Of a stretch of 64,000 nt of DNA, positions 4,313-29,265 are shown in pieces; the first letter of the stretch is position 1; every line of letters starts with the position of its first letter. The DNA lies in assembly GCA_964363475.1 (NCBI GenBank), contig CAYIII010000001.1:2170-66169 (forward strand), in the 5' to 3' direction. This DNA comes from an uncultured Candidatus Saccharibacteria bacterium (GTDB taxonomy: Bacteria; Patescibacteriota; Minisyncoccia; UBA6257; UBA11618). The translations under genes were made by a program, and so were the position numbers. The notes under the pieces are model-generated. The model made no database searches. It had not been told where the DNA came from and saw only the letters and a program-made list of their open reading frames with translations.

Positions 4313-5323
4313 AAAAAACCATAAAATTTTTTGCCGCCACCAGCTGTTTTTTAATTGAAAATCCAATTTTTCCCCCTCCTTCTTCCAACTTTCTATTATA
4401 GAAATAAGTTTATTTATCATATTTTGTTTTTGAAAAACAACTCCCCCTTCCATCATATTATTAAAACTCAAAGCATCAATGTTTTGGGAACCGACCAGGG
4501 CTTCGGTTTTATCAATCAATAACGCCTTGGCATGAATCATTTTTTTAACAAAATAAAAATTGATGCCCGGACGATAAACCAAAGAAGCAAAAAAGTGATT
4601 TGCCAGATTCATAACAAATACATCTGTTTTCTTCGGCAAAAGAATGTCAATAATCGCGCCACGTTCAACGGCTTTGTATAAAGATTTTACCAGCCAAGGG
4701 TAAGGAACGAAGTAGGGAGTGATAATTGTAATGTTATTTTTCGCCTCCGATAAGACCTTTTGATAATGTTTTTTTAGAACATATTTTTTGCGTCCGGGCC
4801 AATGTTCAATGACTTTTATCTTTAATTTGCCTATAATTGATTTTTTAACGCTGATTCTGTCCCGTCCGCCGGAAAAATAATAGGTCTTCACGAAAGAGCG
4901 CAGTAAATAATTTACGATTCTGCCCTCTAATCTGATATGAAGGTCAAGCCAATGACGATGATGCTTGGCCAAATTAACTCCGCCGATAAAAGCTATTTTT
5001 TCATCAATGATTAGCAATTTTTTGTGATTTCTGCCCAATAAGCCGTGTCCTTTAAAAAATAAAATTTCCGCACCGGCGTCTTCCAGTGCCTTTCTTGTTT
5101 TAGAGCTCAAGAAAAAACTTCCCCAATAATCGGCAATAATTTTGACACTTAATCCCGCCTCCGCCTTTTCTTTTAAAGTATCAAAAATTTTTTGATTAAG
5201 TTCATCGCCATCGGTGTCAAGCAAAATATAACTTTCCCAATAAATAGATTTTTGGCTTAATTTTAACGCTTCTAACATCCCCTCCCAGGTCTTTTCCGAG
5301 GTTGTATAAAATTTATATCTCAT
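4298..5323 (-). CDS. phospholipase D / cardiolipin synthase-like protein with two HKD motifs
   Basis: Two HxKx4D motifs: HKKLLIID and HAKALLID. Confidence 0.75.
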   Translation of the reverse strand: MRYKFYTTSEKTWEGMLEALKLSQKSIYWESYILLDTDGDELNQKIFDTLKEKAEAGLSVKIIADYWGSFFLSSKTRKALEDAGAEILFFKGHGLLGRNHKKLLIIDEKIAFIGGVNLAKHHRHWLDLHIRLEGRIVNYLLRSFVKTYYFSGGRDRISVKKSIIGKLKIKVIEHWPGRKKYVLKKHYQKVLSEAKNNITIITPYFVPYPWLVKSLYKAVERGAIIDILLPKKTDVFVMNLANHFFASLVYRPGINFYFVKKMIHAKALLIDKTEALVGSQNIDALSFNNMMEGGVVFQKQNMINKLISIIESWKKEGEKLDFQLKNSWWRQKILWFFLINF

Positions 5324-7152: not shown

Positions 7153-7777
7153 AAATATAAAAATAAATGACGCTAGAAATAAATATAATTATTAAGGCAA
7201 TTAAAAAATATTTTTCAAAGGCGGCAATTTGCCAAGCGTATTTTTCATATTCTTTTCCTAAATACCATCCCAAAAGAGATAAACTAGTTACACGAATAAA
7301 GGTGCCGAAAAAGGTAGTAAGTAAAAATTCACGCAAATTTAAACGAATCAATCCGCAAAAAATAGTGACTGTGCTAACAGGCAAAATAGGCACGATTCGT
7401 AAAAATAGTAACGCAAATTCATCAATATGGCCAGAAGTAAATTTTTTATTCAATTTTTCTATTTTCTGCCAATTTAAATTGATATATCTCCCCCATTTTT
7501 CAACAAAAGGTTTGCCCCCCCAGTAAACCAGACGATATAATAAGAAACTTCCTAAAGTTACTCCTAACGCGCCCGGCAATCCTATTTTAAATATGGATGT
7601 CACCACCGCATAAAAACCGCTTGCATAGGGATCAATTAATAAAAAACCGATGGCTATAAAAATTATTGAAGATGGAATAAAAACGACTATTTCTTCAATT
7701 ACGCCCAATAAAAAAACCGCCGCTAAACCATAAGCGGCAACAAAATATCTCATCAACTCTAGATAATCGTTAACCAT
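7130..7777 (-). CDS. DedA/SNARE-associated (TVP38) family membrane protein
   Basis: 215-aa hydrophobic protein with a DedA-like core (GLIRLNLREFLLTTFFGTFIRV). Confidence 0.6.
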   Translation of the reverse strand: MVNDYLELMRYFVAAYGLAAVFLLGVIEEIVVFIPSSIIFIAIGFLLIDPYASGFYAVVTSIFKIGLPGALGVTLGSFLLYRLVYWGGKPFVEKWGRYINLNWQKIEKLNKKFTSGHIDEFALLFLRIVPILPVSTVTIFCGLIRLNLREFLLTTFFGTFIRVTSLSLLGWYLGKEYEKYAWQIAAFEKYFLIALIIIFISSVIYFYIYGKQKKS

Positions 7778-7834
7778 TTTGTAATTATAATAGCATTATG
7801 GGGTGTCTGACGGGAATCGAAACCATATAACAGG

Positions 7835-7906
7835 GGAGGCATACCAGGATCGAACTGGCGCTAAGGCTGCCACAGAGCCTTGTGCTACCACTACACCAAT
7901 GCCTCC
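7835..7906 (-). tRNA. tRNA-His (anticodon GTG) with an encoded G-1
   Basis: Cloverleaf folded by hand: acceptor GAGGCAT/ATGCCTC, anticodon loop CTGTGGC, T-loop TTCGATC. The extra 5' G pairs with discriminator C, a His identity element. Confidence 0.8.
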
Positions 7907-7909
7907 ATA

Positions 7910-8255
7910 TTAACGAATAATTAACCTACGAACATAACCATGATCTAATCCGAGATGCTTGCCTATAGATCTATAAGACAGACCTTTTTCCCTGAGCAAC
8001 TTACACTTATTTTCTTTACTTTGCAACAACTTCCTCTTTTGATTATGAATCATTAGCAACAGAGTAAACCCAACTGTCCTTCCAATGTTCTTTTCTCTTC
8101 CTTGTTTTAAATATATTCCCCATATTAGAAAATGTTTTAATTTTTTGTAGAACTTCTTCATTAGTTTGAGGAATTGAAATACGATAATTAGTTGGATCGT
8201 GCTTTAAAATACTGCCTTCACCGTCAAAAAAACCAGCTATATAATTCCAATCCAT
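7910..8255 (-). pseudogene. free-standing LAGLIDADG homing endonuclease, apparently frameshifted into two overlapping ORFs (8043..8255 and 7910..8161)
   Basis: The N-terminal ORF contains IAGFFDGEGSI, a LAGLIDADG motif. The second, out-of-frame ORF has an HTH-like C-terminus (LSYRSIGKHLGLDHGYVRRL). It lies between tRNA-His and the intron-containing tRNA. Confidence 0.55.
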
Positions 8256-8293
8256 TGTCTAATTATATCTTACTTGGTGACAAAGTTATATTG

Positions 8294-8596
8294 TGCCGCG
8301 GGGGTGAATCGAACACCCGACGCCAGCCTCTTCCAAGGCTTAGTTTGGACTATCTCATCCCCGTCTAGCGGGGCCGGGCGCTATTTGCAAGATTATTGTT
8401 GGGACTCACTCGCTAGTCTCTACACCTTCCAAAAAACCTTCCGCCTCCGCCGATTAGCAGATGCGGGGCCCTTCTTGGCTTGGCTCGGGATAGCCGCTTA
8501 TCGCGATTCCCCCGAATTCACCCGGTTATTCAATCTGCATTACTGCAGAAGGCCCCAAAGATTTAGGGCTGCGCTCTACCACTGAGCTACCGCGGC
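8294..8596 (-). tRNA. tRNA-Phe (anticodon GAA) interrupted by a 231-nt group I intron between positions 33 and 34
   Basis: Exon 1 is 8565..8596 and exon 2 is 8294..8333. They ligate to a 72-nt cloverleaf (GCCGCGG acceptor, TAGCTCAGTGGTAGAGC D-arm, anticodon loop CTGAAGA, T-loop TTCGATT, discriminator A). The splice site is supported by P1 (exon GCCCU with IGS GGGGC, U.G at the junction) and P10 (exon 2 GAAG with CUUU). Confidence 0.75.
8334..8564 (-). ncRNA. group I self-splicing intron in the tRNA-Phe anticodon loop
   Basis: The internal guide sequence CUUUGGGGC follows the 5' splice site, and the intron ends in G. R-like (UAGAGACUAGCG) and S-like (GAGAUAGUCC) elements could form P7 (GACUA/UAGUC). 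Confidence 0.7.
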
Positions 8597-8635
8597 CTAT
8601 AACTGTTATAATAACATTATAATTAATAGTCAATT

Positions 8636-28463: not shown

Positions 28464-28907
28464 ATGGACACAAACATTACTAACAAAAAAGCGTACTTTA
28501 ACTACGAAATCCTGGAGACCTACGAAGCGGGAATTGAGTTAAAAGGATTTGAAGTTAAGGCCATCAAAACCGGCAAAGCGAGCATAGTCGGTTCTTTTGT
28601 GATTGTTAAAAATAATGAAGCATGGTTATTAAACGCCGACATTCCTCCTTATCAGCCGGCTAACACTCCTCCGGACTACGACCCAAAACGCACCCGCCGC
28701 TTATTATTAAAAAAAGAAGAAATAAAAGAGTTGATTGGGAAAACCCACGAAAACGGCTTGACAATAGTGCCATTAAAATTGTACAATAAAAACGGAAAGA
28801 TTAAGATTGAAATTGGTATCGGACGGGGGAAAAAGAAAACGGATAAGCGTGAAACCATTAAAAAAAGGGAGTGGTCAAGGCTTCGACGGAACATTGAAAC
28901 CAGATAA
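28464..28907 (+). CDS. smpB: SsrA-binding protein SmpB
   Basis: 147 aa, conserved YFNYEILETYEAGIELKG..VKAIK, basic C-terminal tail. Confidence 0.9.
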   Translation: MDTNITNKKAYFNYEILETYEAGIELKGFEVKAIKTGKASIVGSFVIVKNNEAWLLNADIPPYQPANTPPDYDPKRTRRLLLKKEEIKELIGKTHENGLTIVPLKLYNKNGKIKIEIGIGRGKKKTDKRETIKKREWSRLRRNIETR

Positions 28908-29209
28908 GCAAGTAAGGTTGCAGGCCCTTTAAAAACTGCGCAAGATTAACTGCAAACACATTTAATCGACAACCCGCGTTGGCATACGCTTAATGCGGCA
29001 CCGGCGGCTTATGCCTAATAAAGCCATAACCGGTGTAATAATCTTAGGCTCTGTTTCGAAAAACTGATGTTTCGAAATGAAAATTTAGTCAGTAAAATTT
29101 TTCAGTTTTTGCCAAGTTTTAAGCTGAAAAATTTAAATTAACTTGGATAAACTTGTAGAAAGTTTGGCGGACATGCTTTCGGACGGGAGTTCAATTCTCC
29201 CCACTTCCA
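28867..29209 (+). ncRNA. ssrA: tmRNA (SsrA), standard one-piece; its 5' end overlaps the last 41 nt of smpB
   Basis: 5' GGGAGUGGUCAAGGCUUCGACGGAACAUUGAAACC matches the tmRNA 5' consensus (UUCGACGG). 3' CUUUCGGACGGGAGUUCAAUUCUCCC CACUUCC A gives a T-arm plus a 7-bp acceptor stem with the G3.U pair. Tag-like ORF with terminal ...AYA and UAA stops at 28964-29021. CCA not encoded. Confidence 0.85.
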
Positions 29210-29265
29210 CAAAAAATAAATTTTGACTTTTTATCTTTTATAAGCTATCCTTACCATAAACTTTC

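Follow-up and report, generated by a model that had tools for sequence, protein, structure and literature searches.

A group I intron in tRNA-Phe(GAA) and a degenerate LAGLIDADG gene side by side in a groundwater Patescibacteria genome

Between an intron-split tRNA-Phe gene and the tRNA-His gene that follows it, the genome of an ultra-small Patescibacteria bacterium from Hainich groundwater carries a broken LAGLIDADG gene. The arrangement raises the question of whether the two elements belong together, the gene being what remains of a system that once moved the intron, or whether they arrived separately in the same tRNA unit. An initial reading made from the sequence alone (hereafter the sequence-only reading) favored the first possibility. 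Here we analyze the locus within a 64,000-nt stretch of DNA (the window), using searches against structural models, protein profiles and comparable loci from other genomes. We consider it probable that these are two independent selfish elements sharing one small tRNA transcription unit of this genome, and that they are neighbors because tRNA-Phe directly precedes tRNA-His in this lineage.

The split tRNA-Phe gene and its intron

With introns allowed, ARAGORN reports a tRNA-Phe on the minus strand as c[8293,8596] (gaa) i(33,231). Exon 1 (8596..8565, minus, 32 nt) comprises positions 1-33 and ends at its 3' side in ...GCAGCCCU, with U33 as the last nucleotide; exon 2 (8333..8294, minus, 40 nt) starts with GAAGAGGCUG and extends from the anticodon GAA to the discriminator A, CCA not being encoded. 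When joined, the exons yield the canonical Phe(GAA) cloverleaf that the sequence-only reading had proposed, and the ligated anticodon arm, GCAGCCCUGAAGAGGCUGG, is identical to that of the uninterrupted tRNA-Phe in a syntenic relative (L206). Both the default ARAGORN scan and Rfam at its gathering threshold miss the split gene. Under default tools the genome would therefore seem to be without an essential tRNA, and the intron-aware call recovers the gene that they overlook. ARAGORN with introns allowed found no second tRNA-Phe within the 64-kb window; the split gene is probably the sole tRNA-Phe(GAA) of the genome.

Upstream of the gene lies a promoter-like site, TTGACT-N17-TATAAC (8605..8633, minus), the 3' end of which is 8 nt from tRNA-Phe. 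It is the single match to this pattern in the window, where shuffles expect 0, and identical hexamers with the same spacing precede the tRNA-Phe of L206. A consensus promoter scanner reported nothing above chance in the window; the site is absent from its output because the scanner demands T at the last -10 position. As a putative promoter, this site would drive transcription of the precursor from just upstream of tRNA-Phe.

The intron (8564..8334, minus, 231 nt) follows position 33, contains no ORF and closes with a terminal G at 8334. The sequence-only reading had suggested a scan with the group I model, and a permissive Rfam scan indeed returned a full-length match to RF00028 at 8324-8574 on the minus strand (model 1-253/253, E 2.4e-11), the 49.6 bits of which fall 0.4 bit under the gathering score of 50. 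None of the RF00028 seed sequences was bacterial, according to the tFind preprint. On the minus strand, the modelled structure comprises the P1 guide (8552-8556), the P10 guide (8557-8560), P2 (8535-8548), P3 (8519-8525 with 8374-8380), P4 (8510-8515 with 8485-8490), P5 (8494-8506), P6/P6a (8472-8483 with 8425-8435), P7 (8414-8418 with 8348-8352), an extra hairpin (8387-8413) and P8 (8359-8373).

Covariation was assessed on intron sequences from the listed matches of a pattern scan, with 94 delimited tRNA-Phe introns for P1 and P10 and 93 homologues for the core helices. In the window, the exon-1 end GCCCU pairs with the guide GGGGC, placing a U.G pair at the 5' splice site. Across the family the guide tracks the anticodon stem, with GCCCU/GGGGC in 37 introns, GGACU/GGUCC in 25, GGCCU/GGGCC in 4 and AGACU/GGUCU in 1, and P1 forms on average 4.73 of 5 pairs with its own guide versus 3.37 with guides from tRNAs of other stems. 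P10, in which the intron CUUU pairs with the exon-2 start GAAG, has 4 pairs in 92 of the 94 introns and tracks G37/A37; the terminal G is present in all 94. All 46 modelled core pairs are standard pairs in the window, and 32 of them show changes on both sides across the 93 homologues, where 93.1% of cells in the core helices are paired versus 33-46% when the partners are slid. None of 500 shuffles matched the observed covariation score. P7 (GACUA/UAGUC) agrees with the Rfam consensus and is invariant in the 93 sequences, and is therefore uninformative for covariation. The splice sites, P1, P10, terminal G and P7 named in the sequence-only reading are thus all present, and each is conserved or covarying in the 93 homologues. 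Taken with the end-to-end RF00028 match and the ARAGORN call, this covariation upholds a group I intron at 33/34 of tRNA-Phe(GAA), and the intron is real.

Splicing activity is something that we infer, in a simple course of events. In the precursor, the GGGGC guide would settle on the exon-1 end GCCCU, with U.G at the splice site, and CUUU on the exon-2 GAAG; guanosine-initiated self-splicing would then ligate the exons into a normal tRNA-Phe. Where family columns are at least 90% conserved, the window sequence equals the consensus in 81 of 82. Intron nucleotide 73 (8492, minus, in J5/4) is U in the window and A in all 92 other family members; this U, which is identical in three independent assemblies, could weaken splicing. 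Minimum-free-energy folding of the intron alone gives a weak signal (z = -1.8 versus shuffles) and does not recover the pseudoknotted core.

Two further features concern the architecture of the intron. The hairpin at 8387-8413, located between P7 and P3', covaries and has a 5-bp stem closed by a conserved loop of 17 nt; in this interval, two hairpins occur in other members of the family. Extra helices between P7 and P3' (P7.1/P7.2) are the defining trait of subgroup IA. The variant found in the window also lacks a P9 hairpin; its 3' tail pairs instead with that strand of the anticodon stem which belongs to exon 2.

A family of tRNA-Phe introns in Patescibacteria

A pattern scan of species-representative genomes returned at least 120 loci from other genomes, of which about 100 of those listed contain an intron-split tRNA-Phe, so that the 33/34 split occurs in at least about 100 Patescibacteria genomes. 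Family members are 70-78% identical to the window intron over their full length, and the intron belongs to one homologous tRNA-Phe family spread through Patescibacteria. The 94 delimited introns span 202-336 nt and are all too short for an ORF. No long, ORF-bearing tRNA-Phe intron was found among the 27 loci that the delimiting script did not resolve, which are truncated by the end of the locus, match by chance, or hold a normal-length intron already called by ARAGORN.

A tRNA-Phe(GAA) intron at 33/34 has been reported in the Patescibacteria genome GCA_016699995.1 (Table 1 of Nakagawa et al. 2026, PMC13011429), as the single Phe case among 95 complete genomes. It shares with the window intron the host tRNA, anticodon, insertion position and phylum, and is likewise short, without an ORF and missed by default annotation; the two are presumed to be homologous. 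That survey met such genes while seeking tRNA genes apparently missing from complete genomes, demonstrated in vitro splicing for Asn and Asp introns of Patescibacteria, assigned none of the tRNA introns of Patescibacteria to subgroup IC, and described the phylum's tRNA introns as mostly devoid of endonuclease genes and hence of limited mobility (PMC13011429). The sequence-only reading had regarded a Phe(GAA) host interrupted at this point as unusual, a view contradicted by the published case and by the split loci found here (at least about 100), as well as by the classical tRNA-fMet introns, whose site is also 33/34. The Phe 33/34 introns are one homologous, structurally constrained family in many Patescibacteria lineages, extending a survey that was confined to complete genomes.

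The classical IC3 introns, in cyanobacterial tRNA-Leu(UAA) at 34/35, tRNA-fMet at 33/34, Azoarcus tRNA-Ile and Agrobacterium tRNA-Arg, resemble the window intron in building P1 and P10 from nucleotides of the anticodon arm, and in the case of tRNA-fMet also in the insertion site. Unlike them, the window family has the extra P7-P3' hairpin with its conserved 17-nt loop, a subgroup IA trait, and the window variant replaces the P9 hairpin by the pairing of its 3' tail to the exon-2 strand of the anticodon stem.

The degenerate LAGLIDADG gene

Beginning 38 nt downstream of the split tRNA-Phe, two ORFs (ORF1, 8043..8255, and ORF2, 7910..8161, both minus) overlap in different frames. The N-terminal piece of the gene (8052..8255, minus, within the 70-aa ORF1) holds the LAGLIDADG helix IAGFFDGEGSI and the first beta strands, and ORF1 matches the Pfam models LAGLIDADG_3 (28.6 bits, cut-off 22.5) and LAGLIDADG_1 (26.7 bits, cut-off 23.1). 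The C-terminal piece (7910..8053, minus), which is the tail of ORF2 in the other frame, contains the helix-turn-helix KLLREKGLSYRSIGKHLGLDHGYVRRLIIR, and the Pfam matches of ORF2 are weak helix-turn-helix hits (HTH_38, E 0.003). The gene's stop codon lies 3 nt upstream of G-1 of tRNA-His(GTG) (7833..7906, minus), which is called by ARAGORN and by Rfam with 56.4 bits.

A word-indexed protein search with ORF1 returned the query itself only, and it was an exhaustive search that revealed the family to which the gene belongs, one for which NCBIfam has no model. ORF1 is 53-61% identical to the N-termini of proteins of 145-167 aa, in which a LAGLIDADG domain, complete in one frame, is followed by a helix-turn-helix. 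On the family HMM, the N-terminal piece of the window gene covers positions 1-68 (126.3 bits) and the C-terminal piece positions 102-147 (44.1 bits); positions 69-101 are absent, a gap that also appears in the alignment, and a complete single-frame LAGLIDADG domain is not present in the window copy. By comparison with the intact relatives, about 100 nt are missing from the window gene, equivalent to 33 codons and a change of frame. Judged from its sequence, the ORF pair at 7910-8255 is what is left of a free-standing gene, now dead, for a protein of about 150 aa. The sequence-only reading saw in it a degenerate LAGLIDADG gene that stands outside the intron and ends in a helix-turn-helix-like tail, in agreement with the Pfam and family HMM matches; the simple frameshift that it proposed gives way to an internal deletion of about 100 nt.

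The stretch that includes the frame break is identical, save for one spacer SNP, in three independent assemblies from Hainich well H51. A sequencing or assembly frameshift, which the sequence-only reading had wanted checked, is accordingly rejected, given this agreement among the three assemblies and a defect that consists in the loss of about 100 nt. Programmed frameshifting was considered and rejected as well, because 33 core residues are missing. The ancestral gene would have encoded one I-CreI-like LAGLIDADG domain and a C-terminal helix-turn-helix in about 150 aa, and the deletion would have removed the third helix with its conserved Lys region and pushed the tail out of frame.

Over positions 4-110, the family profile matches the solved structures of I-PanMI, I-MsoI and I-CreI, and its members keep the motif's acidic residue (GFxDGEG) together with a Gln and the Lys region IVKK, as in active enzymes of the I-CreI or I-MsoI type. 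I-CreI, I-MsoI and I-Vdi141I (PDB 1g9y, 1m5x, 3e54) are homodimeric, single-domain LAGLIDADG homing endonucleases, with which the family (about 150 aa) shares the whole domain of about 105 residues, including the acidic residue and the Lys-rich third helix. These enzymes lie inside rRNA introns, whereas the window family, known from sequence, is free-standing and carries the extra C-terminal helix-turn-helix; unlike them, the window copy is without profile positions 69-101. A distant relative is gene 134 of Streptomyces phage Forrest, annotated as a LAGLIDADG endonuclease, whose 150-aa product aligns over 96% of family member P0002, tail included, at 26.6% identity. Like the family, this is a small endonuclease gene wedged among tRNA genes and ending a few nucleotides before the next one; it differs in residing in a phage rather than a cellular genome and in preceding tRNA-Cys, not tRNA-His. 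T4 SegB, in the tRNA region of that phage, is the studied example of a free-standing endonuclease in a phage tRNA cluster.

Position of the two elements and their relationship

Close relatives of the dead gene occur in 14 other loci, and in every one of them the gene lies directly 5' of tRNA-His(GTG). In all 15 loci, the window included, the gene and tRNA-His share a strand, and the stop codon either precedes G-1 by 2-85 nt or falls within the tRNA gene. Among the loci L126-L137 and L058, nine have an ORF that stops 2-9 nt short of G-1; in L127 it runs into the tRNA-His gene, and in the rest the distance is 30-85 nt. This position is held even though identity among family proteins is only 40-60% and tRNA-His varies widely in sequence from one locus to another. 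The 5' sequences of tRNA-His are diverse, and a shared recognition site is therefore not evident. A conserved 'ATG' before tRNA-His was considered as a mark of the endonuclease site and rejected, being found also where no endonuclease gene lies upstream.

The slot upstream of tRNA-His varies in content between related genomes. L206, which is syntenic with the window at 84% DNA identity, is a clean empty site, free of both intron and endonuclease gene: its tRNA-Phe is uninterrupted, and tRNA-His follows 2 nt later. It provides the intron-less allele, with the same anticodon arm, that the sequence-only reading had suggested looking for in related genomes. In another pair of loci, L127 and L209, homology sets in 12 nt upstream of tRNA-His, with 87.7% identity from there on, and the genes upstream differ; L127 has the LAGLIDADG gene in the slot and L209 an HNH-like gene, so labelled from a motif reading and Pfam matches below cut-off. 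Their tRNA-Phe genes are intron-less.

These observations suggest a separate history for each element. The intact relatives are best read as putative homing endonucleases targeting a site 5' of tRNA-His, so that a free-standing gene would home by itself, without an intron. The sequences, the covariation-backed folds, the empty site of L206 and the constant position are what the analysis shows, and nuclease activity and target are what we infer. The window copy would then have reached the stage of the usual homing cycle at which the gene decays. The sequence-only reading had instead taken the endonuclease as a record of past mobility of this intron. Such a link does not fit the distribution of the two elements: an intron-split tRNA-Phe beside the gene is absent from 13 of the 14 other gene-bearing loci, tblastn and HMM searches recover the family gene in one (L058) of the 120 pattern-matched loci among the matches listed, and in both L127 and L209 an endonuclease gene occupies the slot next to an intron-less tRNA-Phe.

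A looser connection, which would add to rather than replace the explanation of two independent elements, is that the endonuclease homes 5' of tRNA-His and that break repair co-converts the flanks, carrying along the ORF-less intron 40-800 bp away in lineages whose tRNA-Phe directly adjoins tRNA-His. Co-conversion of flanking sequence is normal in homing, and Phe-His adjacency is common in Patescibacteria. Both elements are present in the window and in L058, where an intact family gene lies downstream of a split tRNA-Phe, and neither is present in L206; given this both-or-neither pattern in three syntenic genomes, linked transfer would fit too. We nevertheless regard it as unlikely: the pattern rests on three genomes, the occupied slots of L209 and L127 adjoin intron-less tRNA-Phe genes, most split tRNA-Phe genes among the matches listed are without a nearby endonuclease gene, and, among the matches listed, the introns of L058 and the window are no close relatives within the family.

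Slightly less credible still is the proposal that the LAGLIDADG-HTH family is no mobile nuclease but has been domesticated to bind DNA or RNA, its gene being transcribed together with tRNA-His, passed on vertically and lost in the window lineage. Prolonged vertical descent of such a gene would yield the same positional pattern, in which the location stays constant despite the divergence of protein and tRNA-His alike and the stop codon keeps close to the tRNA start; the added helix-turn-helix also recalls the LAGLIDADG-plus-HTH layout of WhiA, to which the Pfam match is weak. Against domestication speak the retention of the acidic motif residue, the Gln and the IVKK Lys region as in active enzymes, the patchy distribution with an empty site in DNA as similar as that of L206, and the unrelated HNH-like gene that takes the family's place in a genome 88% identical. 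A mobile gene also accounts better for the pseudogene in the window and for the relative located among the tRNA genes of a phage.

We attach little probability to the LAGLIDADG gene having been the intron's partner, either homing in trans at the insertion site in tRNA-Phe or having escaped from the intron as its ORF, and decaying since the intron became fixed. Its proximity to the split tRNA-Phe (38 nt), the split gene that in L058 also lies upstream of an intact copy, and the lack of both elements in L206 would agree with this partnership, as does the collaborative homing of a free-standing endonuclease and an ORF-less intron documented in phages (PMC3984707). Trans homing requires that the endonuclease target be the intron insertion site, and the distribution of the family argues against it here. 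Its constant neighbor is tRNA-His, 13 of the 14 other gene loci are without a split tRNA-Phe, and the gene is found in only one of the 120 pattern-matched loci among the matches listed; in L127 it adjoins an intron-less tRNA-Phe. The length of the 94 delimited introns leaves no room for an ORF that could have escaped, and the L058 intron falls outside the closest relatives of the window intron among the matches listed. Most improbable of all is a disabled gene, with a ribozyme that has lost splicing and a second copy as the source of tRNA-Phe. The A-to-U change in J5/4, found in the window alone where the family is otherwise invariant, the Rfam score just below cut-off and a view of the genome that spans 64 kb could be read in that way, but every one of the 46 core pairs is preserved, the consensus is kept in 81 of 82 conserved columns, the exons give a perfect cloverleaf behind a conserved promoter-like site, no second tRNA-Phe was found in the 64 kb, and the survey of complete genomes met such genes among seemingly missing tRNAs (PMC13011429).

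With two independent elements as the preferred explanation, free-standing endonuclease genes between tRNA genes, at a fixed site beside tRNA-His, go beyond what that survey described, and they might affect the movement of tRNA regions, possibly including introns, between genomes. Speculatively, the tRNA-His slot may be a dedicated homing site of Patescibacteria, used by a so far undescribed free-standing LAGLIDADG-HTH family as well as by the HNH-like gene of at least one related genome, and homing there may co-convert the ORF-less tRNA-Phe intron wherever tRNA-Phe abuts tRNA-His. If this tentative view were true, co-conversion would offer a route for the spread of endonuclease-less tRNA introns in Patescibacteria. 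As a separate observation on the slot 5' of tRNA-His, most loci have nothing there, and two other loci hold an ORF with a release-factor-like GGQ motif.

The split tRNA-Phe gene and its uninterrupted counterpart

On the minus strand of the window, tRNA-Phe is encoded by exon 1 (8596-8565, GCCGCGGUAGCUCAGUGGUAGAGCGCAGCCCU), a 231-nt intron running from AAAUCUUUGGGGCC to AAGCCUUG (8564-8334) and exon 2 (8333-8294, GAAGAGGCUGGCGUCGGGUGUUCGAUUCACCCCCGCGGCA). Neither the default tRNA scan nor Rfam at its gathering threshold reported this gene; in the window they called only tRNA-His, tRNA-Arg, tRNA-Pro, tRNA-Leu and a tmRNA. With introns allowed, ARAGORN places tRNA-Phe at c[8293,8596], with anticodon GAA and a 231-nt intron after position 33, and yields a canonical cloverleaf from the joined exons. 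The group I assignment made from the sequence alone was recovered in a permissive Rfam scan, in which Intron_gpI (8324-8574, minus strand) matches over 253/253 model positions with an E-value of 2.4e-11, although its 49.6 bits lie below the gathering score of 50. The ARAGORN call and the permissive match therefore bear out the coordinates, splice sites and pairings named in the sequence-only reading. The tmRNA is of the standard one-piece type (window 28867-29212, tag peptide ANTFNRQPALAYA) and is unrelated to the split tRNA-Phe.

Comparison with related genomes for an intron-less allele succeeded in L206, a syntenic relative reached by way of DedA-type genes orthologous to the one that follows tRNA-His in the window. 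At 84% DNA identity and with equal gene order, it carries an uninterrupted tRNA-Phe(GAA) (4829-4903), and tRNA-His begins 2 nt later. Its anticodon arm, GCAGCCCUGAAGAGGCUGG, is the exact product of ligating the window's exons, so that the splice junction is fixed independently, and a TTGACT-N17-TATAAC site upstream of tRNA-Phe is kept in both sequences. This empty site shows the intron and the neighbouring gene to be dispensable insertions.

Distribution and structural constraint of the intron

The intron family was surveyed by scanning one genome per species for a pattern that combines the 3′ strand of P7 with a G preceding GAARA and with the T-arm of the tRNA; at least 120 loci match it. Nearly all of the matches listed come from Patescibacteria bins (labelled Saccharibacteria, Paceibacterota, Parcubacteria group, Harrison-, Falkow-, Doudna-, Moran-, Berkel-, Yanofsky-, Lipton- and Ryanbacteria, among others), and a few are labelled Gammaproteobacteria or Bdellovibrionales. 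In about 100 of the loci listed ARAGORN calls an intron-split tRNA, which is Phe(GAA) with few exceptions, and dozens align full-length to the window's tRNA-Phe precursor at 70-78% identity.

The tFind preprint gives an increase from 4 to 21 in the known tRNA/position settings of bacterial group I introns. A survey of Patescibacteria complete genomes (Nakagawa et al. 2026, PMC13011429) lists a Phe(GAA) 33/34 intron for GCA_016699995.1, gives 33/34 as the usual tRNA-fMet intron site, assigns no Patescibacteria tRNA intron to subgroup IC, and reports that few tRNA introns encode endonucleases. The window's intron, sharing host tRNA, anticodon and 33/34 position with that Phe intron, is one more member of a kind already catalogued, whose distribution is much wider than the single listed case would suggest; the rarity originally ascribed to a Phe(GAA) host does not hold.

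From the pattern-matched loci we delimited 94 introns of 202-336 nt, the window's included. They are preceded by CU in 93 cases and by UU in one, and all 94 end in G before GAARA. The P1 and P10 pairings track the exon sequences: P1 is formed by GCCCU/GGGGC in 37 introns, GGACU/GGUCC in 25, GGCCU/GGGCC in 4 and AGACU/GGUCU in 1, and P10 by CUUU/GAAG in 43, UUUC/GAAA in 30 and CUUC/GAAG in 19. A window-derived core model of 46 pairs (P2, P3, P4, P5, P6/6a, P7, an extra hairpin and P8) was evaluated on an alignment of 93 sequences, in which 93.1% of core cells are paired, versus 33-46% when partners are slid by 1-3 columns. Both-sided changes occur in 32 of the 46 pairs and the observed covariation score is reached by 0/500 shuffles; the predicted core structure is supported by this alignment.

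The window's intron agrees with the consensus in 81 of the 82 columns conserved at 90% or more. The sole deviation is intron nt 73 (window 8492, J5/4), which is U in the window and A in 92/92 other introns. It adjoins the P4 3′ strand, in the part of the core where the P1 U.G pair docks in those group I introns that have been studied, and may slow splicing. The extra hairpin (8387-8413), between P7 and P3′, combines a covarying stem with a conserved 17-nt loop, UGAGUCCCAACAAUAAU, and occupies what we take to be the place of P7.1/P7.2 in subgroup IA introns.

Three further observations concern this family. In introns without a P9 hairpin (55/94), the ~5 nt that precede the terminal G form pairs with exon 2 at nt +4 to +8, the 3′ strand of the anticodon stem (8335-8339 with 8326-8330 in the window), putting the 3′ splice site into a small loop. 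This pairing covaries, is complete (5/5 pairs) with 75% of own exons versus 15% of foreign ones, and is absent from the 39 introns with P9. A Saccharibacteria-labelled bin (L114; 460-531, 1018-1075) holds an intron-less tRNA-Phe together with an orphan fragment in which the ~20 3′-terminal nt of a Phe intron are joined to exon 2, as would be expected from integration into, or recombination at, a once-split gene. Many Patescibacteria loci (L037 1406-2092, L019 855-1514, L014 888-1589 and L075 1118-1819, among others) have, beside split tRNA-Phe, an ORF of ~230 aa whose N-terminus weakly matches a helix-turn-helix model (HTH_23, E 0.003); it is probably an ordinary conserved neighbour.

A decayed LAGLIDADG gene

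Between tRNA-Phe and tRNA-His lie two overlapping, out-of-frame minus-strand ORFs. ORF1 (8043-8255, 70 aa) passes two Pfam LAGLIDADG models, and the helix-turn-helix matches of ORF2 (7910-8161) are weak. A word-indexed search for relatives returned none beyond the query itself; an exhaustive search yielded 416, the best being 145-167 aa long with 53-61% identity over ORF1 residues 1-68. Aligned to these, ORF1 corresponds to the N-terminus and the ORF2 tail to the C-terminal helix-turn-helix, with ~33 columns absent between them; against the family HMM, frame A scores 126.3 bits over positions 1-68 and frame B 44.1 bits over positions 102-147. No additional stop codon interrupts either piece, so a single loss of ~100 nt accounts for the damage: the decaying gene described from the sequence alone is real, but its lesion is this deletion and not a simple frameshift. 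The family profile matches the solved I-PanMI, I-MsoI, I-CreI and 3e54 over positions 4-110, which include the region lost here. The ORF-pair sequence is the same in three independent assemblies.

An independent 1285-bp contig (L004/L138) shows 100% identity to the window over a stretch that begins upstream of tRNA-Phe, spans tRNA-His and reaches the start of the DedA-type gene. Identity falls to roughly 85%, by eye, in its last ~120 nt (versus window 7560-7700), so that the contig is a mosaic of strains or an assembly chimera.

The endonuclease slot upstream of tRNA-His

A metagenome scan with the family alignment found close relatives of nearly full length at 13 loci, among them L138, the window's own region; including L058, a Harrisonbacteria bin from the genome scan, 14 other loci were tallied, or 15 with the window. 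In 15/15 the gene lies directly upstream of tRNA-His(GTG) on the same strand, and in most its stop codon falls 2-9 nt before G-1. Upstream, the gene's neighbour varies: six loci have tRNA-Arg(TCT) there, in five nothing lies within reach, and L127 has an intron-less tRNA-Phe in inverted orientation. Split tRNA-Phe takes this place in just two, the window and L058; the latter has an intact 161-aa copy and the window's tRNA order, Pro-Arg-Phe-His. What the family constantly accompanies is tRNA-His and not the intron. Of the 120 pattern-matched loci listed from other genomes, L058 alone carries the gene. The proposed tie between endonuclease and intron mobility is not sustained; Phe-His gene order is common in Patescibacteria and accounts for the adjacency in the window.

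From exactly 12 nt upstream of tRNA-His, L127 and another genome, L209, are 87.7% identical; beyond that point L127 has the LAGLIDADG gene and L209, whose tRNA-Phe lacks an intron, a 162-aa ORF with an HNH-like motif and Pfam matches below cut-off. A weaker version of the link has the intron co-converted together with the endonuclease gene. Three syntenic genomes, each with both elements or with neither, fit this version, but they are too few and it is contradicted by L127 and L209. Retained catalytic-type residues, patchy presence, a clean empty site, replacement by another endonuclease gene and the existence of a decayed copy make the family resemble free-standing homing endonucleases that occupy a fixed site, a putative role to which a domesticated protein is a possible alternative. 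'Intronless homing' names such a pathway for free-standing endonuclease genes (PMC3984707). This tRNA-His-associated slot is the part most worth pursuing.

Streptomyces phages have a distant relative (26.6% identity over 96% of length) within a tRNA array, where tRNA-His and tRNA-Cys flank it. In phage Forrest (L213), the gene at record positions 78743-79192 encodes 150 aa, is annotated as LAGLIDADG endonuclease, has the family's domain layout and stops 7 nt before tRNA-Cys; nearby, an HNH gene overlaps the tRNA-Met start. The different endonuclease genes sharing one slot in L127 (4001-4525, LAGLIDADG+HTH) and L209 (1363-1908, HNH-like), both groundwater genomes, read into tRNA-His, their shared end NMEALV being encoded by the tRNA gene itself. 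The triplet A-T-G, its G being G-1, precedes nearly all of the Patescibacteria tRNA-His genes in the loci compared (L020-L124, L126-L138), with or without an upstream endonuclease gene; in L206 its A is the last base of the tRNA-Phe CCA.
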